Below are positions 14,859 through 32,000 of a stretch of 32,000 nucleotides of DNA, one piece after another. A program made the position numbers and the translations under genes. The notes below the pieces were generated by a model. It did no database searches. It was not told where the DNA came from and was given only the letters and a program-made list of their open reading frames with translations. Each line of letters opens with the position of its first letter. Position 1 is the first letter of the stretch. This stretch comes from Pyrodictium occultum (lineage in GTDB: Archaea > Thermoproteota > Thermoprotei_A > Sulfolobales > Pyrodictiaceae): NCBI RefSeq assembly GCF_001462395.1, contig NZ_LNTB01000001.1:210001-242000 (forward strand), read 5' to 3'.

Positions 14859-15998
14859 CTACACCTGCCCGGGGACCGCCACGCGCCCCCTCTCGGCCAT
14901 GTACTCGGCCACCCAGCCTGCAAGAGTGTCCTCGTCGACCTTCTTCATCCTTGGAGCCGCCTCCTTCAGCTTGTTCAGTATGTGCTTCACCAGGCCGGGT
15001 TCCGGGGTGAAGCCCATCCTACTCAGCGCCCACTCCACCGCCGCCCTGCCGCTGTGGCGGCCCAGCACTATCCTCCTCTTGTTGCCCACCGCCTCAGGCT
15101 CTATCGGCTCATAGGTGGCGGGGTTCCGGAGCACGCCGTGGACGTGTATACCCGCCTCGTGGGCGAACGCGTTCCTGCCGACGATAGCCTTGTTGGGCGG
15201 GACCTCGACGCCGAACTTCCTGGCTACAAGCCTCGAGACGGGAGTCAGCAGCTCCAGCCTCACCCCGGTCCTCCTGCCCATCAGGAAGTGGAGGGCGGCC
15301 ACAACCTCCTCCAGCGCCGCGTTGCCGCCCCTCTCGCCGAAGCCGTTCACGGTCACCTGGACCCCGTCGGCCCCGGCCCGGAGGCCTGCCAGCGTGTTAG
15401 CGGTAGCCAGTCCGAAGTCGTCGTGGCAGTGCACGTCTATCCACACGCCCGGGGGTAGGCTGCCGCGGACCAGGCTGACCAGCCACTCCATGTACCACGG
15501 GGTTGCGGTGCCCACGGTGTCGGGTATGTTGATGTACCTGGCGCCCGCCTCCACCACCGCCCTGTAGACCTGCACGAGGAAGCCGGGGTCGCTCCTGGTA
15601 GCGTCCTCGGCGGAGAAGAGGACCATGGCGCCATAGCTACGGGCCCTCTCGACGGCCTCAACGGCGCGCTTAATCACCTGCTCTCTTGTCATCCTCAGCT
15701 TGTACTTCATGTGCACATCGCTGGTGGCTATGAACACGTGGATTATATGGGCCTCCGCCGCCGCGGCCTCGTCAACGTCCCTTGGGCTGGCCCTGGCCAG
15801 GGCAGCTATCCTGGCGCGCGTGGCCTCGCGCACAGCAGCCTGTACAGCCCTCCGGTCTATCTCGGAGGAGGCGGGGAACCCTGCCTCTATGATGTCGACG
15901 CCCAGCTCGTCTAGCGCCCTCAGTATCTCGATCTTGTCCTTCAGGTCCAGCTCGACTCCGGGCATCTGGTCTCCGTCGCGGAGGGTTGTATCGAACAC
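14859..15998 (-). CDS. leuA: 2-isopropylmalate synthase / homocitrate synthase family enzyme, short form without the C-terminal LeuA regulatory domain
   Basis: FDTTLRDGDQ at the N-terminus and HCHDDFGLATANTLAG (DRE-TIM/HMGL-like). Only 379 aa. GTG start at 15998. Confidence 0.85.
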   Translation of the reverse strand: MFDTTLRDGDQMPGVELDLKDKIEILRALDELGVDIIEAGFPASSEIDRRAVQAAVREATRARIAALARASPRDVDEAAAAEAHIIHVFIATSDVHMKYKLRMTREQVIKRAVEAVERARSYGAMVLFSAEDATRSDPGFLVQVYRAVVEAGARYINIPDTVGTATPWYMEWLVSLVRGSLPPGVWIDVHCHDDFGLATANTLAGLRAGADGVQVTVNGFGERGGNAALEEVVAALHFLMGRRTGVRLELLTPVSRLVARKFGVEVPPNKAIVGRNAFAHEAGIHVHGVLRNPATYEPIEPEAVGNKRRIVLGRHSGRAAVEWALSRMGFTPEPGLVKHILNKLKEAAPRMKKVDEDTLAGWVAEYMAERGRVAVPGQV

Positions 15999-15999
15999 C

Positions 16000-16031
16000 C
16001 TTACGCGAGTTCCACTTTCGGCTGCACCTCC
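16000..16031 (-). promoter_or_regulatory. SD plus 4-codon uORF cassette immediately upstream of leuA
   Basis: Minus strand reads GGAGGTGCAGCCGAAAGTGGAACTCGCGTAAG. The uORF GTG GAA CTC GCG TAA (16015 down to 16001) ends 2 nt before the leuA GTG. It matches 16274-16305 at 26 of 32 positions. Confidence 0.4.
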
Positions 16032-16096
16032 TCGCCGCGCGGCCCCAGGCCCTGAACGGGCCCCGGGCCGCGTGGGCCTAGCCGGCCACGCCTAGG

Positions 16097-16149
16097 CTGT
16101 TTTAAAGTCTTTTCTACATGATAAAGTGCCTGGGCAAAGTTTTAATAGG
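16097..16149. promoter_or_regulatory. Divergent leuA / ilvB promoter island
   Basis: AT-rich GTTTTAAAGTCTTTTCTACATGATAAAGTGCCTGGGCAAAGTTTTAATAGG. TATA-like boxes at 16099-16107, 16120-16126 and 16139-16149. Confidence 0.5.
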
Positions 16150-16204
16150 GGGAGCCTGGTGGGCGCAAGTCTACCTGCCTCAGCCCTTCTGGGCTCCGCT
16201 AGGC

Positions 16205-16265
16205 GCAGGAGGTGGTCTGGATGTCAAACGTCCCGGCGTAGCAGGAGGTGGTCCGGATGTCAAAC
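16205..16265 (+). repeat. 25-nt direct repeat (2 copies, 36-nt period) in the ilvB leader
   Basis: GCAGGAGGTGGTC[T/C]GGATGTCAAAC at 16205-16229 and 16241-16265, 24 of 25 identical. Confidence 0.9.
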
Positions 16266-16273
16266 ATTTGGTA

Positions 16274-16305
16274 GGGGGTGCAGCCGGAAATGGAACTCGT
16301 ATGAG
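16274..16305 (+). promoter_or_regulatory. SD plus 4-codon uORF cassette overlapping the ilvB start
   Basis: GGGGGTGCAGCCGGAAATGGAACTCGTATGAG. The uORF ATG GAA CTC GTA TGA (16290-16304) has a stop that overlaps the ilvB ATG at 16301 (ATGA). Confidence 0.4.
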
Positions 16306-18079
16306 CCGTGTAGTGGACCACGTGGCCCGGGTCCTTAGGGAGCTCGGGGTTAGGGAGGTATTCGGCGTAACCGGCGGCAGTATAATGGGGTTCTTCGACG
16401 CCCTGGCCCTCGAGGGTATCGAGATCTACATGTTCAGGCACGAGCAGGGCGCCGCCCACGCGGCCGACGCCTACGGCAGGGTGGCCCGCAGGCCGGGCGT
16501 CGTGTCGGTGACCAGCGGTCCCGGCGCGACCAACATAGTGACCGGGATAGCCAACGCCTACTTCGACTCCGCGCCGGTGCTCGCGATAACGGGGCAGGTG
16601 CCGACAAGCGTCTTCGGCCGCGACGCGTTCCAGGAGACTGATATAGTCGGCGTCACCGCGCCAATCACCAAGTTCGTCTACCAGGTTAGGAGCCCCGGGG
16701 AAGCGGGCCCCGCGGTGAGGACCGCCTACCGCCTCGCCATCGAGGGGCGGCCCGGCCCTACCCTGGTCGACTTCCCGAGGGACGTGCAGCTGAGCAGCCA
16801 CGAGCCGGCCGACGAGCCTGACTACCTGCCGCTGAACTTCGCCAAGTACCGTCCCCCGCCGCCCGATCCCGAGGCGGTGGCTAGGGCGGCCCGGCTGCTC
16901 CTAATGGCGGCCCGCCCCGTGATACTCGTTGGCAACGGCGTCTACTGGTCCGGCGCCACCGCCGAGGTGCTGGAGCTCGCTGAGAGGCTCCAGGCCCCGA
17001 TAGTGACGACGCTGCCGGGCAAGAACGCGGTGCCCGCCGACCACCCGCTGGTGATGGGGCCAGCGGGGATGCACGGCCGTGCCGAGGCTGACGCGGCCCT
17101 CGCCAACGCCGACGTGGTGCTCGCCGTGGGCACCAGGTTCTCGGACCGCACGGTGGGGAGGTTCGGCCCCGAGCTGCTGGAGAAGAAGATAATCCATATA
17201 GACGCGGACCCGAGCGAGCACGGGAAGAACGTGCCCCCCGCAGTCAGCGTGGTGGCGGACGCGAGGCAGGCCCTCCGAGCCCTGCTGAGGGAGATCAGGG
17301 CAGCGCCGCTCCGCGACACGAGGTTCCTAGAGTGGCTCAACTGGATCCGCCGCCGCTACGAGGAGGCCATGGAGAAGCTCGCGGCCAGGTTCAGGAAGTT
17401 CCCGCCCTGGAAGGTGCTGAAGACGCTGAGGCAGGCCGTGCCCCGGAACGCTATAACGGTGACCGGGGTCGGCAGCCACCAGATGTGGGCCGAGCAGCAC
17501 TGGGACGTCTACGTGCCCGGTACATGGATTACGAGCGCCGGCCTGGGCACTATGGGGTTCTGCGTCCCAGCGGCGCTCGGGGCCAAGATAGCGGCCCGGG
17601 ACCGCACGGTGCTCTGCATCGACGGCGACGGGAGCTTCCAGATGACCATGAACAACCTGGCCCTGGTGAGGGACTACGACCTCCCGATAATAGTGACTGT
17701 GTTCGACAACCGGGCCCTCATGCTGGTGAAGCAGTGGCAGATCTACATGTACGACCGGAGGATAGTAGCCACGGAGTACAGCAGGTGGCCCTGCTTCGAG
17801 AAGATAGCCGAGGCGTATGGCATAGATGCTGTCCGGCCGGCGAGCCTCGAGGAGCTCGAGGCCGCCGTCCGCCGTGCCGCCAGGAACAACGAGCCGCTGA
17901 TAGCTATAGTTGATATCGACCGGGAGGAGGATATAGTGCTGCCCTGGGTGAAGCCCGGCGACTGGCTCACCGAGGCCATACTGCCGCCGGGCATGGAGGA
18001 TGTAAGCCTCGTCTACGACGAGAAGGAGTGGGAGAAGGTGGCCTCGGCGATAGCAGCCAAGACCGCCAGGAGTGGGTGA
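16301..18079 (+). CDS. ilvB: Acetolactate synthase (acetohydroxyacid synthase) large subunit, ThDP-dependent
   Basis: N-terminal VFGVTGGSIMGFFDAL, and the ThDP motif IDGDGSFQMTMNNL. Start set at ATG 16301, where similarity to the family begins. The track's ATG at 16118 lies inside the TATA island. Confidence 0.9.
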   Translation: MSRVVDHVARVLRELGVREVFGVTGGSIMGFFDALALEGIEIYMFRHEQGAAHAADAYGRVARRPGVVSVTSGPGATNIVTGIANAYFDSAPVLAITGQVPTSVFGRDAFQETDIVGVTAPITKFVYQVRSPGEAGPAVRTAYRLAIEGRPGPTLVDFPRDVQLSSHEPADEPDYLPLNFAKYRPPPPDPEAVARAARLLLMAARPVILVGNGVYWSGATAEVLELAERLQAPIVTTLPGKNAVPADHPLVMGPAGMHGRAEADAALANADVVLAVGTRFSDRTVGRFGPELLEKKIIHIDADPSEHGKNVPPAVSVVADARQALRALLREIRAAPLRDTRFLEWLNWIRRRYEEAMEKLAARFRKFPPWKVLKTLRQAVPRNAITVTGVGSHQMWAEQHWDVYVPGTWITSAGLGTMGFCVPAALGAKIAARDRTVLCIDGDGSFQMTMNNLALVRDYDLPIIVTVFDNRALMLVKQWQIYMYDRRIVATEYSRWPCFEKIAEAYGIDAVRPASLEELEAAVRRAARNNEPLIAIVDIDREEDIVLPWVKPGDWLTEAILPPGMEDVSLVYDEKEWEKVASAIAAKTARSG

Positions 18080-26151: not shown

Positions 26152-26229
26152 GGGCCCGTAGCTCAGCTAGGATAGAGCGCCGGCCTCCTAAGCCGGTGGT
26201 CGGGGGTTCAAATCCCCCCGGGCCCGCCA
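26152..26229 (+). tRNA. tRNA-Arg (anticodon CCT), with 3' CCA encoded
   Basis: Hand-folded cloverleaf. Acceptor GGGCCCG/CGGGCCC, D arm GCTC-AGCTAGGATA-GAGC, anticodon arm CCGGC-CTCCTAA-GCCGG, T arm GGGGG-TTCAAAT-CCCCC, discriminator G, then CCA. Confidence 0.93.
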
Positions 26230-30478: not shown

Positions 30479-30606
30479 AGGCCTGCATAGAGGTTAAGCC
30501 GTGCCGGGGCCTCCGGGAGGAGGCCAGGTGGGCCCGCTGCGTGTCCAAGACACTGGTACACGCGAGCGGGCTCGTGGAGAGGCTGGCCGGGCTCCTGGAG
30601 GGCTAG
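30337..30606 (+). CDS. Small hypothetical protein (89 aa), intact copy
   Basis: MVVDLGFELSYLLSDALGRRVEVQGYSFDPGKALLCIDALVEGRGPRKACIEVKPC.. Coding-like composition. No family recognised. Confidence 0.5.
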   Translation: MVVDLGFELSYLLSDALGRRVEVQGYSFDPGKALLCIDALVEGRGPRKACIEVKPCRGLREEARWARCVSKTLVHASGLVERLAGLLEG

Positions 30607-32000
30607 CCTCCGGGCTTCCGGAGCCTCGCTATGAAGTACCCGGTCGCCCGGTGGATGCTCGGGTGCACCCTTATGGCGTGCTCGCCGTAGAAGCCTATGC
30701 CCCGGCTGAAGCGCCTGGGCCAGGCCTCCTCGAGGCGGAGGCCCAGCTCCTCCACGGCGTAGCGCATATTCTCCTCGTTCTCGCGGAGCGTCATGGTGCA
30801 GGTGGAGTAGACCAGCACCCCGCCGGGCCGGAGGAGCCGCTGGGCGGCGCGGAGGAACCGCCTCTGGTACCGGGCGGCGGCCTCCACGTCGCGCAGCGTC
30901 TTCCGGTCCCAGACCTTGGGTATCACGCCGAGGCTGCTGCAGGGAGGGTCGAGGATAACATAGTCCGCCACCCCGGCGCCCAGTATCCTGTCAAGCCTCC
31001 TGGAGTCGGCGCGCAGCACCTCCACCCGGTGCCCCAGCCTCCTCACCTCCTCCCTGAGCCTCTCCACCTTGCCCCTGGAGTGGTCGACAGCCACCACCCG
31101 CACCCTGCCCCCGGCCAGCTCGTAGACGTGGCCGGTCTTCCCTCCCGGCGCCGCGCACATGTCTACGACCAGGGAGCCGGGCTCCGGGGATACTTGGGTA
31201 TCACGCCGAGGCTGCTGCAGGGAGGGTCGAGGATAACATAGTCCGCCACCCCGGCGCCCAGTATCCTGTCAAGCCTCCTGGAGTCGGCGCGCAGCACCTC
31301 CACCCGGTGCCCCAGCCTCCTCACCTCCTCCCTGAGCCTCTCCACCTTGCCCCTGGAGTGGTCGACAGCCACCACCCGCACCCTGCCCCCGGCCAGCTCG
31401 TAGACGTGGCCGGTCTTCCCTCCCGGCGCCGCGCACATGTCTACGACCAGGGAGCCGGGCTCCGGGGATAGGACGTGGGCGGCCATCATGGAGGAGATGC
31501 TCTGCTCGTATATCGCGCCGCTCCTCCACCACCGGGTCTCCCTGAGGCTGGGCACCCGGTAGAGGGGCTGGACGTTCTCCACCACCAGGCCCCGCCGCGC
31601 CCGGAGAGCGGCCGGAGCCTCCTGGGCCACCACCCCCAGGGCTACGGCGGCGCCGTTCTCCGCTACAACCAGCACCTCCCTGCCCGGCCGGGCGCAGTCC
31701 TCGAGCCGGACCACGCCGGGGGCGTACACGTGGGCGCCGAGCATAACGCTCTCGGCAGCCCTCTTGTCCACCACCACCCTGCAGCCCGGGTCCCGGAGCC
31801 TCGCTGGCCCCTCGACGGGTATCCAGAGCGCCTCCTCCAGCAGCTCGTCGCGGTGCACCGGGTAGCCCTCCTTCCTCATCTCGTCGAGCAGCTCCCCGGG
31901 GTCGGCGCGGAGGGTGTTGACCCGGAAGTAGTAGCGGGACGGCGGCGCGGCGAGGGCCTCGAGGAGCCTGGGGAGCCCGTGGCGGCCATAGACCCTCTCA
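30603..32000 (-). pseudogene. NOL1/NOP2/Sun (RsmB-like) RNA cytosine-C5 methyltransferase with a PUA-like domain. The frame is broken by the 278-bp duplication, and the 5' end lies beyond the window.
   Basis: N-region ..YYFRVNTLRADPGELLDEMRKEGY stays open to position 32000. PUA-like VVVDKRAAESVMLGAHVYAPGV, SAM motif DMCAAPGGKT, catalytic DPPCS and YSTCT. As sequenced it splits into ORFs 31163-31879+ and 30603-31160. Removing one repeat copy restores a single frame (..GVIPK|VWDRK..). Confidence 0.85.
30915..31470 (-). repeat. Perfect tandem duplication, 2 x 278 bp, internal to the methyltransferase gene
   Basis: 30915-31192 and 31193-31470 were compared base by base and are identical. 278 is not a multiple of 3. 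Confidence 0.95.

Follow-up and report, generated by a model that had tools for sequence, protein, structure and literature searches.

Mini-ORFs with Leu, Ile and Val test codons in the leuABC and ilvBNCD-leuD leaders of Pyrodictium occultum and its relatives: candidate amino-acid sensors that may act by -1 slippage

In the 32,000-nucleotide stretch of Pyrodictium occultum DNA analyzed here (the window), leuABC is divergent from ilvBNCD-leuD, with gene identities confirmed by NCBIfam matches, and a first-pass annotation reported two homologous 32-nt cassettes in inverted orientation directly upstream of leuA and ilvB. The question raised by this locus is what such cassettes do in front of these two genes. 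To our knowledge, what has been described of the control of amino-acid biosynthesis in archaea concerns transcription factors almost exclusively. The encoded LeuA lacks the C-terminal Leu-binding regulatory domain, as had been stated before, LeuA_dimer being absent from its Pfam list, and IlvN is 80 aa long. The public LeuA annotation begins at Met12 (368 aa), so that the catalytic FDTTLRDG motif is cut off.

Both cassettes were found where they had been placed: the minus strand from 16031 to 16000 reads GGAGGTGCAGCCGAAAGTGGAACTCGCGTAAG, the plus strand from 16274 to 16305 reads GGGGGTGCAGCCGGAAATGGAACTCGTATGAG, and counting by eye reproduced 26 identities over 32 positions without gaps. The repeat search returned the pair as an inverted repeat at 16006-16032 and 16273-16299 (27 nt, 89%). 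The core GGTGCAGCCGRAARTGGAACTCG, allowing up to three mismatches, occurs at these two places only in the 32 kb, whereas 100 dinucleotide shuffles of the window give an expectation of 0. A second inverted repeat, I2 (16059-16078 / 16315-16334), is treated as chance: it is GC-rich and lacks collinearity with the cassette pair, and one of its arms is ilvB coding sequence. The anatomy given by the first-pass annotation also holds, with an SD, a 9-nt spacer, and a 4-codon mini-ORF in both copies: on the leuA side the SD ends 26 nt from the leuA GTG at 15998 and the mini-ORF stop lies 2 nt before it, and on the ilvB side the stop overlaps the ilvB ATG at 16301 as ATGA. The GTG at 15998-15996 is the sole canonical leuA start in P. 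occultum, and the GTA of the LeuA main frame overlaps the mini-ORF stop as GTAA. Missed at first were two extra SD-led mini-ORFs in the ilvB leader, MSNVPA-stop (16221-16241) and MSNIW-stop (16257-16274), which the repeat search returned as direct repeat D1. The leuA frame is -1 relative to its mini-ORF, and the ilvB frame is -1 relative to all three leader mini-ORFs. The units fall into two types, type E having the form SD-N9/10-NTG-GAA-[CTC or GTC] and type N the form SD-N6-NTG-NNA-AAC-[ATT/ATC, GTC or CTC], where the bracketed position holds the test codon. The features of the locus are as follows.

14859-15998, minus strand: leuA, 2-isopropylmalate synthase, short form without regulatory domain (NCBIfam and Pfam)
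15996-16004, minus strand: first main-frame codons of LeuA, GTA AGG GTG (V/M-R-V), then TTC GAT ACA ACC (FDTT)
16001-16031, minus strand: leuA-side type-E (Leu) unit, SD GGAGGTG at 16031-16025, 9-nt spacer
16015-16001, minus strand: leuA-side mini-ORF GTG GAA CTC GCG TAA (M-E-L-A-stop)
16013-16010, minus strand: proposed slip tetramer G-GAA of the leuA-side unit, with test codon CTC at 16009-16007
16098-16150: AT-rich center of the divergent region with archaeal TATA-like boxes (sequence reading)
16108-16100, minus strand: TATA-like box CTTTAAAA for leuA
16140-16147, plus strand: TATA-like box TTTTAATA for ilvB
16208-16241, plus strand: ilvB-leader type-N (Val) unit, SD GGAGGTGGTCT, ATG at 16221
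16221-16241, plus strand: Val-unit mini-ORF ATG TCA AAC GTC CCG GCG TAG
16226-16229, plus strand: proposed slip tetramer A-AAC of the Val unit, with test codon GTC at 16230-16232
16244-16274, plus strand: ilvB-leader type-N (Ile) unit, SD GGAGGTGGTCC, ATG at 16257
16257-16274, plus strand: Ile-unit mini-ORF ATG TCA AAC ATT TGG TAG
16262-16265, plus strand: proposed slip tetramer A-AAC of the Ile unit, with test codon ATT at 16266-16268
16274-16304, plus strand: ilvB-side type-E (Leu) unit, SD GGGGGTG, 9-nt spacer
16290-16304, plus strand: ilvB-side type-E mini-ORF ATG GAA CTC GTA TGA (MELV-stop)
16292-16295, plus strand: proposed slip tetramer G-GAA of the ilvB-side type-E unit, with test codon CTC at 16296-16298
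16301-18079, plus strand: ilvB, acetolactate synthase large subunit (NCBIfam)

The positions of the TATA-like boxes would put all units within 5' leaders, and in all relatives the units are preceded by an equivalent YTTTAAR element. An Rfam gathering scan of the window returned one tRNA alone, with no match in the leader region. Ten aligned ilvB leaders have no conserved fold (alifold energies of -7 kcal/mol at 37 C and 0 at 85 C), single-sequence folding z-scores of the leaders (-1.3 to +0.8) are not significant, and within the segments analyzed no conserved structure lies 3' of the units. The leaders also have no T-runs or oligo-T terminators; with neither conserved RNA structure nor a T-run, attenuation by another route is unsupported. 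A GC hairpin at 16035-16075 in the P. occultum leuA leader is seemingly not conserved, other leuA leaders having been read by eye.

Relatives were gathered by exact-protein look-ups, except L130, which came from metagenome contigs, giving 11 Pyrodictium-like loci (the window and 10 relatives) and a distant extra locus, L136. The cassette is present on both sides in these 10 further relatives with the same gene order, and units occur on both sides in the 11 loci, whose LeuA proteins are 74-88% identical to that of P. occultum (NJ matrix). As to restriction to BCAA genes, a question the first-pass annotation had posed, the cassette was found at BCAA genes only within the ~130 kb of archaeal sequence scanned. 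Each unit in the leuA and ilvB leaders of the 11 loci consists of an SD with 7-11 nt complementary to the archaeal 16S 3' end, an NTG, 4-8 codons, and a stop that comes 1-3 codons after the test codon, and the stop of each upstream unit adjoins or overlaps the SD of the next. Unit starts interchange among ATG, GTG and TTG and stops among TAA, TAG and TGA, with the SD retained and the codon that follows the test codon free to vary; the interchange of start and stop codons indicates that the units are translated. The leuA-side type-E units of relatives start with GTG, ATG, TTG or CTG, and a 1-nt indel is tolerated within the SD-start spacer on that side. The Ile unit is present in all 11 Pyrodictium-like loci, with ATG or TTG starts and TAA, TAG or TGA stops. 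Defective unit starts occur in two loci (TCG in L008 and CTG at leuA of L135). On these sequence comparisons the 32-nt cassette appears to be one member of a modular family of test-codon mini-ORFs in the leuABC and ilvBNCD-leuD leaders of Pyrodictiaceae-like archaea. The leuA of Pyrolobus fumarii (L006) was considered as carrying a diverged cassette and rejected, being more simply an ordinary ORF since its ELIVARIRVFD resembles the MPIVARIRIFD N-termini of relatives.

The test codons follow the pathway. All 12 leuA-side units carry Leu, 11 being type E in the Pyrodictium-like loci and one, in L136, type N (TTG CCA AAC CTC), and the ilvB-side units comprise 11 Ile, 10 Leu and 4 Val, counts that are not independent, given the phylogenetic relatedness of the loci and the concerted evolution of both cassettes in each genome. 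Val units originated twice, the window and L001 having type N (AAC GTC) and L132 and L134 having type E (GAA GTC), and duplicated cassette copies differ essentially by one codon, CTC to GTC. One test codon is conserved per unit; the second BCAA residue in some peptides (MELV-stop, MEVAEVQA-stop) is not conserved, and clustered regulatory codons within one leader peptide are absent in these units. AAC is invariably preceded by A, even though the first two bases of the preceding codon vary (TCA/CCA/TTA). GAA, which accounts for 1% of Glu codons in the P. occultum genome, and ATT, which accounts for 2% of Ile codons, are both invariant in the units. The units look like amino-acid sensors for Leu, Ile and Val. 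The shared translational control point suggested by the first-pass annotation is the most reasonable reading of what are genuine homologous SD and mini-ORF cassettes on both mRNAs.

Every ilvB-side unit found lies in frame main+1, the start-to-start spacings between units (27, 33, 36, 39 and 42 nt) are all multiples of three, and the coding anchor follows the last unit at 71, 80 or 101 nt, always 2 mod 3; these spacings and distances imply at least five indel or duplication events, all of multiples of 3, unlike the 1-nt indel tolerated in the leuA-side SD-start spacer. Canonical start codons are missing from several enzyme genes. The leuA frame of L001, L004 and L009 is interrupted by an in-frame stop 14-16 codons ahead of the catalytic Asp, with no ATG, GTG or TTG between; the codon overlapping the mini-ORF stop is in all three the near-cognate start ATA, which 8 of 12 leuA loci retain. 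For ilvB, L004 has no canonical start in 53 open codons, and the position of the P. occultum ilvB start is occupied by GTA in L004 and L008, by CTA in L135, and by GTG or ATG in 7 of 12 loci. The leuA codons of relatives run ATA/GTA, then AGG/AGA/CGT, then GTG/GTC/ATC, which is sense-codon behavior; outside the clade, ATA serves as a sense codon in relatives that read R-I-R-V-F-D. In nearly all loci the ancestral start position is overlapped by the stop of the mini-ORF (RTAA, GTGA, GTAG, GTGGTAG), and gene callers give IlvB lengths of 559-653 aa across loci. The absence of a canonical leuA or ilvB start in several relatives means that simple reinitiation cannot be general.

Some other readings of the leaders were discarded. 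The GTG within the SD (GGAG-GTG) was rejected as a real start, having no SD of its own and being followed by a TAG stop directly in L004 and a TAA three codons later in L132. This SD-internal GTG is in frame with the mini-ORFs and, through a 1-nt longer spacer, with leuA itself in L008 and L133. A leaderless enzyme start at the TSS was likewise rejected, a main-frame GTG or ATG ~22 nt after the TATA occurring in L007 and L134 but being missing in the window, L001, L004, L009 and L130. The open main frame through the leader was set aside as uninformative about frameshifting; in this GC-rich DNA the third frame is open to the same extent, which deprives the observation of statistical weight.

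The units, their translation signatures, codon specificity and frame relations, and the missing start codons are there to be read in the DNA, and from them we infer that the test codons act as sensors and that ribosomes enter the enzymes by -1 slippage. The best model, to which we would assign slightly less than an even chance, is that the P-site tRNA slips by -1 on A-AAC or G-GAA when the A site holds a Leu, Ile or Val codon starved of its charged tRNA. Ribosomes would initiate on the mini-ORF. With charged test-codon tRNA abundant, the peptide of 4-8 residues would be completed and translation would terminate, yielding no enzyme; with that tRNA scarce, the A site would stand empty and the peptidyl-tRNA would slip by -1 (AAC to AAA, GAA to GGA) while the SD:anti-SD helix was still pulling on it in the P site, after which the ribosome would read on in the enzyme frame. 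The leuA gene would then answer to Leu alone, whereas ilvB would respond to any of Ile, Leu and, in loci with a Val unit, Val (OR logic). For P. occultum the predicted trans-frame peptides are METRVRVFDTT and METRVRVFDTTLR for LeuA, and METRMSRVVDH, MSNHLVGGAAGNGTR, MSNHLVGGAAGNGTRMSR and MSNRPGVAGGGPDVK for IlvB.

Several features are consistent with -1 slippage. A-AAC and G-GAA have slip capacity in the -1 direction only, and the downstream ORF lies in the -1 frame, overlaps the unit, and in several loci has no independent canonical start. The conserved P-site tetramers A-AAC and G-GAA are compatible with single-tRNA ('hungry') slippage (PMC8211752). The SD core lies 12 nt from the slip codon in both unit types (11 nt before the tetramer), with SD-start spacings of 6 versus 9 nt. 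SDs at 9-14 nt stimulate -1 shifts, and initiation and frameshifting can share a single SD (PMC5009743); the SD 12 nt upstream may assist the slip. Counting against the model, only the tetramers are conserved and the classical slippery heptamer X XXY YYZ is absent, a middle-position G.U pair is required if GAA is to re-pair as GGA, and no 3' stimulatory structure was detected. The two defective unit starts, the overlap of the mini-ORF stop with the ancestral start position and the near-cognate ATA of the three leuA loci also count against it, as does the placement of the canonical P. occultum starts exactly for termination-reinitiation (TAA-GG-GTG; ATGA).

That last geometry fits the main rival, termination-reinitiation, in which the SD loads ribosomes on the mini-ORF and these restart at the overlapping or abutting enzyme codon, near-cognate ATA or GTA being tolerated and the BCAA codons being incidental or tuning flux only. 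Coupling of this kind has been documented in archaea (Huber et al., 2019, PMC6728339), and the stop/start arrangement fits P. occultum (ATGA at ilvB; TAA-GG-GTG at 16003-15996 for leuA). Nearly every locus, L136 with its different unit type among them (GTGA), has the stop overlapping the equivalent codon, which is GTG or ATG in 7 of 12 ilvB loci. In every leuA locus either ATA is the codon that the mini-ORF stop overlaps or the open main frame offers a canonical start somewhere. Termination-reinitiation nevertheless requires restart at GTA or CTA, with two mismatches to the initiator, in ilvB of L004, L008 and L135, and although an ATG would keep the stop (ATGA), ATA is what 8 of 12 leuA loci keep. 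It also leaves unexplained the single frame of all units and their multiple-of-3 spacings, the invariant A-AAC and the very rare GAA and ATT codons, the tracking of the pathway by codon identity (Leu only at leuA; Ile, Leu and Val at ilvB), and the twofold origin of the Val unit. As a sensor it would have the wrong sign, since starvation would stall ribosomes atop the restart codon. We regard it as rather unlikely overall. The proposal of the first-pass annotation that the main ORFs depend on reinitiation after the uORF is not supported as a general mechanism, given the missing starts and the sense-codon behavior, and since what is conserved in the uORF is a Leu, Ile or Val codon, the sign of the regulation would be wrong; within P. 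occultum, ribosomes may still reinitiate at the canonical GTG or ATG.

The same codon-specificity evidence that favors -1 slippage would equally suit aminoacyl-tRNA sensors with no frameshift output, in which a stalled ribosome alters access for downstream initiation, protects or extends the transcript (ermC/cat-type), or affects transcription-translation coupling, the enzyme ORFs starting by unconventional initiation; and where a unit stop abuts or overlaps the next SD, occupancy of one unit could gate the next. We consider this improbable, because there is no conserved secondary structure to remodel in the leaders, as the alifold energies above indicate, and no oligo-T terminator, because a ribosome stalled on the last unit, which overlaps the enzyme N-terminus, would cover any start there, and because the missing start codons and strict frame phasing are left unexplained. 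Very improbable in our judgment is that the 27-32 nt repeat is a DNA or RNA binding site for a regulator common to the divergent operons (Lrp/LysM-type, RNA-binding protein, or sRNA) with the mini-ORFs incidental. Nucleotide conservation (TGGAACTCG is invariant in all copies) does exceed the need of either reading frame, and spacer variants co-vary between the copies of one genome (GTCG in both of L001, GGAG in both of L004), but the latter is simply explained by gene conversion between inverted repeats ~250 bp apart. The sites lie ~65-130 nt downstream of the TATA-like boxes, far from usual archaeal regulator action, the interchange of start and stop codons points to translation, duplicated copies differ by the test codon, and a non-homologous unit type supplies the Leu codon at L136 leuA as well as those for Ile and Val at ilvB. 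The earlier suggestion of two inverted sites for protein or RNA binding is not borne out, given the CTC to GTC difference between copies and the other unit type used by L136.

The slippage model shares elements with several known systems. Bacterial BCAA attenuators (E. coli/Salmonella leu, ilvBN and ilvGMEDA; the Corynebacterium ilvB uORF, PMC10272879) likewise place a short translated leader ORF before the same biosynthetic genes, with regulatory codons for what each pathway makes (Leu for leu; Ile, Val and Leu for ilv), and charged tRNA would be the sensed quantity in both. Here, however, the host is archaeal, each mini-ORF has one test codon rather than a run, several mini-ORFs have their own SDs, there are no terminator/antiterminator hairpins and no U-run, and the last mini-ORF overlaps, out of frame, an enzyme ORF that often has no start codon. 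Autoregulatory frameshifting in bacterial prfB (RF2), like regulatory frameshifting more widely (Atkins et al., 2016, PMC5009743), resembles the model in having a short ORF1 before a product in a new frame, an SD-like element at a set distance upstream of the shift site, and a slow A-site codon as trigger, so that the frameshift is both sensor and effector. The shift proposed here would be -1 rather than +1, with the SD 12 nt rather than 3 nt upstream and a sense codon read by a BCAA tRNA instead of a stop codon as the slow codon; the same SD would initiate and shift, as in IS911, and the units are in tandem with different specificities.

In hungry-codon frameshifting (Gallant and Lindsley; reviewed in PMC5009743 and PMC8211752), a single peptidyl-tRNA slips leftward when the A site awaits a scarce aminoacyl-tRNA and -1 re-pairing is possible, as in the model. 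That process is known only as translational error or from engineered constructs, whereas here it would be a designed route to two biosynthetic enzymes; a 2016 review states that no functional trans-frame proteins made by it are known (PMC5009743). Termination-reinitiation in archaea and bacteria (PMC6728339) has in common with these loci an ATGA overlap or near adjacency and an SD inside or before the upstream ORF, which fits P. occultum, but the upstream 'gene' here is an ORF of 4-8 codons and many relatives have ATA, GTA or CTA at the restart codon. The fucA1 gene of Saccharolobus solfataricus is the only -1 PRF case reported in Archaea (PMC8211752). There too a full crenarchaeal product needs a -1 shift between two overlapping ORFs, but its shift site is a mid-gene heptamer of the classical kind (A AAA AAT), with no amino-acid-sensing role reported in the passages of PMC8211752 consulted, while the shift here would come 2-3 codons after initiation, at tetramer sites, and conditionally.

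A non-exhaustive full-text search of a paper library found no described archaeal leader that senses charged tRNA through the ribosome, and control by such mini-ORF slippage may be of a kind not yet described. That these leaders are the first natural switch to read starvation for specific amino acids through hungry-codon -1 frameshifting, with LeuA and IlvB made only or mainly by slipped ribosomes, is a claim we advance tentatively, its chances falling a little short of one half. If true, it would fill a gap named in the recoding review, which knows of no productive use of hungry-codon frameshifting (PMC5009743), and would provide the first leader-peptide-type amino-acid sensor in Archaea. Such a kinetic sensor would be minimal, with four elements (SD, slip codon, test codon, and stop), and its specificity, set by one codon, could evolve by duplication and a single substitution (CTC to GTC), making for a modular, re-programmable design. 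Slippage would also explain the mis-called leuA and ilvB starts in the clade. Even with reinitiation as the route, pathway-matched single-codon mini-ORFs in a hyperthermophilic archaeon would be new.

The units yield a search pattern for similar units at other amino-acid operons. A loose pattern, GGTGNAGNNGNNNNTGGAACTCG, over GTDB genomes gave at least 120 single chance matches (L010-L129), almost all bacterial and with none from Pyrodictiaceae among the matches listed. A stricter pattern applied to metagenome contigs matched two contigs, one of them new (L130).

The two 32-nt sequences that the first-pass annotation had described as homologous, inverted cassettes of an SD and a short upstream ORF were read next to leuA and ilvB as reported, and are identical at 26 of 32 positions. 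The pair was recovered as a 27-nt inverted repeat (89%) in a repeat search of the window, and a 23-nt cassette core with up to 3 mismatches matched only these two sites in 32 kb and none in 100 shuffles. The anatomy proposed for the upstream ORFs likewise stands: the leuA-side GTG GAA CTC GCG TAA stops 2 nt short of the leuA start (GTG), and the ilvB-side ATG GAA CTC GTA TGA overlaps the ilvB ATG. Two further SD-led mini-ORFs, absent from the first-pass annotation, are present in the ilvB leader and were detected in the repeat search as a 25-nt direct repeat with a 36-nt period.

14859–15998, minus strand: leuA (leuB and leuC also on the minus strand)
16221–16241, plus strand: ilvB-leader mini-ORF ATG TCA AAC GTC CCG GCG TAG
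16257–16274, plus strand: ilvB-leader mini-ORF ATG TCA AAC ATT TGG TAG
16301–18079, plus strand: ilvB (ilvN, ilvC, ilvD and leuD also on the plus strand)

The predicted leuA 5' leader also contains an 18-bp GC-rich hairpin (16035–16075; 83% complementary, 5-nt loop) directly upstream of the SD, of which no counterpart was seen when the leuA leaders of relatives were read by eye.

All copies of the unit, an SD and mini-ORF with one Leu, Ile or Val test codon (XXX), belong to one of two types: type E, GGRGGTG-N9(10)-NTG-GAA-XXX-G, and type N, GGAGGTGGTCC-N2-NTG-NNA-AAC-XXX. The start position is occupied by ATG, GTG or TTG (CTG and TCG once each) and the stop by TAA, TAG or TGA, the codon following XXX is unconstrained (TGG, ATG, GCT, GCC, TGC, GGT, TCC), and the peptides have 4–8 residues. 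The interchange of starts and stops and the free codon after XXX read as clear signatures of translation, and the units are probably translated, BCAA-specific control elements.

Relatives were gathered by exact-protein look-ups of LeuA homologues and, for L130, by a metagenome pattern scan, giving 10 Pyrodictium-like loci beyond the window (L001, L004, L007, L008, L009, L130 and L132–L135), with Pyrolobus fumarii (L006) and, at a greater distance, L136 and L137 as outgroups. The divergent leuA/ilvB layout is common to all 10, and LeuA identity to P. occultum is 74–88% in the NJ matrix, from which L130 is left out. The cassette is kept on the leuA side in 10/10 and on the ilvB side in 9/10; these counts overstate independence, given the relatedness of the loci and their partial homogenisation by gene conversion. 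Within one genome the leuA-side and ilvB-side cassettes share a spacer variant (GCAGTCGAAA in L001, ..TGGAGATGG in L004) that differs from genome to genome, which points to concerted evolution, by gene conversion, between the inverted copies. In L008 the ilvB unit start is TCG and the Leu unit is missing, and in L135 the leuA unit start is CTG with a TTG upstream in the main frame, that of the enzyme ORF; both may be decayed or 'escaped' versions. The P. fumarii ilvB leader contains, in frame +1, the mini-ORF ATG GAT TTG CGG GAA GTA GAG TGG TAG (MDLREVEW*), which overlaps the ilvB GTG as GTGGTAG and resembles a type-E unit that has diverged, its third codon being TTG (Leu).

To judge from these leaders, the test codon matches the pathway, with Leu at leuA and Ile, Leu and Val at ilvB, the same logic as in bacterial leu and ilv leader peptides. 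At leuA XXX is CTC (Leu) without exception. Unit order in the ilvB leader is constant, [Val]-Ile-[Val]-Leu-ilvB, with an Ile unit of type N (ATT; ATC once) and a Leu unit of type E (CTC). The window and L001 have a type-N Val unit (AAC GTC), L132 and L134 one of type E (GAA GTC; MEVA*, MEVAEVQA*). Leu is carried by a type-N unit, GAGGTGATGGGT TTG CCA AAC CTC GGC GTG TGA, in the leuA leader of L136 (2890–2975), a Desulfurococcales MAG in which leuABCD and ilvB are not neighbours; the stop of this unit overlaps a main-frame GTG (GTGA). The Val units of both types and this type-N Leu unit indicate that either chassis is able to carry any of the three codons. The match is supported by a generic chassis scan (either type, any XXX; window and 14 archaeal loci, ~130 kb, both strands), in which every unit lay in one of the leuA/ilvB leaders and had L, I or V as XXX, in line, for the sequence scanned, with the restriction to BCAA genes raised in the first-pass annotation. 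It is supported also by a decayed Ile-type unit in the L007 leuA leader (GTCGTGAAGCATGTAGGGGGTGCAG, compared with ..GCCAAACATTATGTAAGGGGTGCAG at L007 ilvB), about 60–45 nt upstream of the leuA Asp codon and upstream of the leuA Leu unit: an Ile unit at leuA would be superfluous and is not maintained, and the inverted duplication was once longer.

The first-pass annotation had proposed that the enzyme ORFs depend on reinitiation after the upstream ORF, which looks natural in P. occultum, where canonical starts adjoin the mini-ORF stops, but the relatives speak against it as a general route. At leuA, the Val codon from which P. occultum starts (GTG) varies across loci between GTG, GTC and ATC, ATA (8 loci) or GTA (4) overlaps the stop of the mini-ORF, and the Arg codon between them shows synonymous changes (AGG, AGA, CGT). 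This variation indicates that the stretch R-[IV]-R-[VI]-F-D is decoded as sense. ATA is the usual Ile codon in P. occultum (71% of Ile codons). In leuA of L001, L004 and L009 an in-frame stop lies 14–16 codons upstream of the catalytic Asp with no ATG, GTG or TTG after it, and in L132 an in-frame TAA lies just 8 codons upstream. The ilvB codon at the P. occultum start position is ATG (1), GTG (6), GTA (4) or CTA (1), and L004 ilvB has no canonical start among 53 open codons. Missing and variable starts result in inconsistent gene calls (559–653 aa for IlvB, 368–443 aa for LeuA); the public P. occultum LeuA (368 aa, named 'homoaconitate hydratase') begins at Met12 and thus loses the FDTTLRDG motif. 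The LeuA of the window is 100% identical to a P. occultum protein. LeuA N-termini outside the clade are ordinary (MPIVARIRIFDTT, MVLIATCERRIRIFDTT, MRVFDTT). The IlvB ORF is also callable as 653 aa from ATG 16118 (16118–18079, plus strand), upstream of a TATA-like box. Pyrobaculum IlvB proteins (P0146–P0176) are called with an N-terminal extension, MFFNVGGSFGAHTRDSKRVVD, that faintly resembles what the Pyrodictium leader encodes in the main frame (GG..G.TR.VVD).

With the enzyme ORF as reference, all units are in frame +1, which places the enzyme in their -1 frame. Unit starts are spaced 27, 33, 36, 39 and 42 nt apart, and the distance between the start of the last unit and a coding anchor is 71, 80 or 101 nt, always 2 mod 3. 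On the LeuA tree these distances require at least five independent duplications or indels, all multiples of three (chance about (1/3)^5). In the leuA unit a 1-nt indel between SD and start is tolerated in L008, L132 and L133. Shifting out of every unit into a single downstream frame would need the units to share a frame, whereas a reinitiation relay would not. That the main frame is open across the leader carries no weight for frameshifting, the third frame being equally stop-free in this 68% GC DNA.

Immediately upstream of the test codon stands either AAC, itself always following an A (the remainder of that preceding codon varies: TCA, CCA, TTA), or GAA, following the start-codon G. By base-pairing rules tRNA-Asn can re-pair on AAA and tRNA-Glu(UUC) on GGA with G.U in the middle, and neither is able to re-pair in the +1 direction. 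In 12 genes of the window GAA accounts for 5/393 Glu codons and ATT for 5/250 Ile codons, yet in the units GAA is invariant, as is ATT apart from one ATC, and the resulting main-frame codons GGA, ACT and AAA are likewise rare, which argues for selection on nucleotides rather than codon optimality. The distance from SD core end to this slip codon is 12 nt in both types, with SD-start spacings of 6 nt (type N) and 9 nt (type E). An SD stimulates -1 shifting when it lies 9–14 nt upstream and +1 shifting when it lies 3 nt upstream (Atkins et al., 2016, PMC5009743); the SD:anti-SD hybrid lasts through several nucleotides of translation, and in an IS element a single SD can act in initiation as well as in frameshifting (PMC5009743). 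'Hungry' -1 shifting, in which a single P-site tRNA slips while the A site is empty, is well established (PMC5009743, PMC8211752), with no functional use known according to the 2016 review (PMC5009743).

On sequence grounds we tentatively favor a starvation-triggered -1 slip from the mini-ORFs as the entry route to LeuA and IlvB. Ribosomes would initiate on the mini-ORF and, with ample charged tRNA, read the test codon and terminate 1–3 codons later; at a hungry A site the P-site tRNA would slip -1, pulled by the SD helix, and the ribosome would read on into LeuA or IlvB, with predicted N-termini METR..., MSNH... and MSNR.... Such slipping would account for codon and operon specificity, modular duplication, frame phasing, the invariant A-AAC/G-GAA, the rare codons, the constant SD-slip distance and the missing starts.

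Termination at the mini-ORF stop followed by restart at the enzyme ORF is rather unlikely, although the mechanism is known in archaea (PMC6728339), stop and ancestral start position overlap in almost every locus (RTAA, ATGA, GTGA, GTAG, GTGGTAG), and the near-cognate ATA is present in each leuA locus that lacks a canonical start. Restart would have to use GTA or CTA at ilvB in L004, L008 and L135, has the wrong regulatory sign, and leaves phasing and the conservation of slip site and rare codons unexplained. Moreover, upstream units stop 1–3 codons past the test codon where no enzyme start is present, so that shortness seems intrinsic to the unit. The two routes may also be combined, with basal coupling in loci that have a canonical start, such as that of P. 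occultum, and inducible slipping. A stalling sensor with an output other than frameshifting is improbable, no conserved RNA structure on which it could act having been found in 10 aligned ilvB leaders at 37 or 85 °C. The inverted protein or RNA binding sites offered as an alternative in the first-pass annotation fit poorly with translated, codon-swapped and chassis-swapped units, and the within-genome co-variation of spacers in L001 and L004 is expected of gene conversion between inverted repeats; this explanation is very improbable.

Elsewhere in the window, a perfect (100%) 278-nt tandem duplication at 30915–31470 (copies 30915–31192 and 31193–31470) overlaps ORFs called on both strands (30501–31241, plus; 31163–31879, minus) and is either a very recent event or an assembly artefact. 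The sole RNA gene detected in the window is a tRNA-Arg (anticodon CCT) at 26152–26229.
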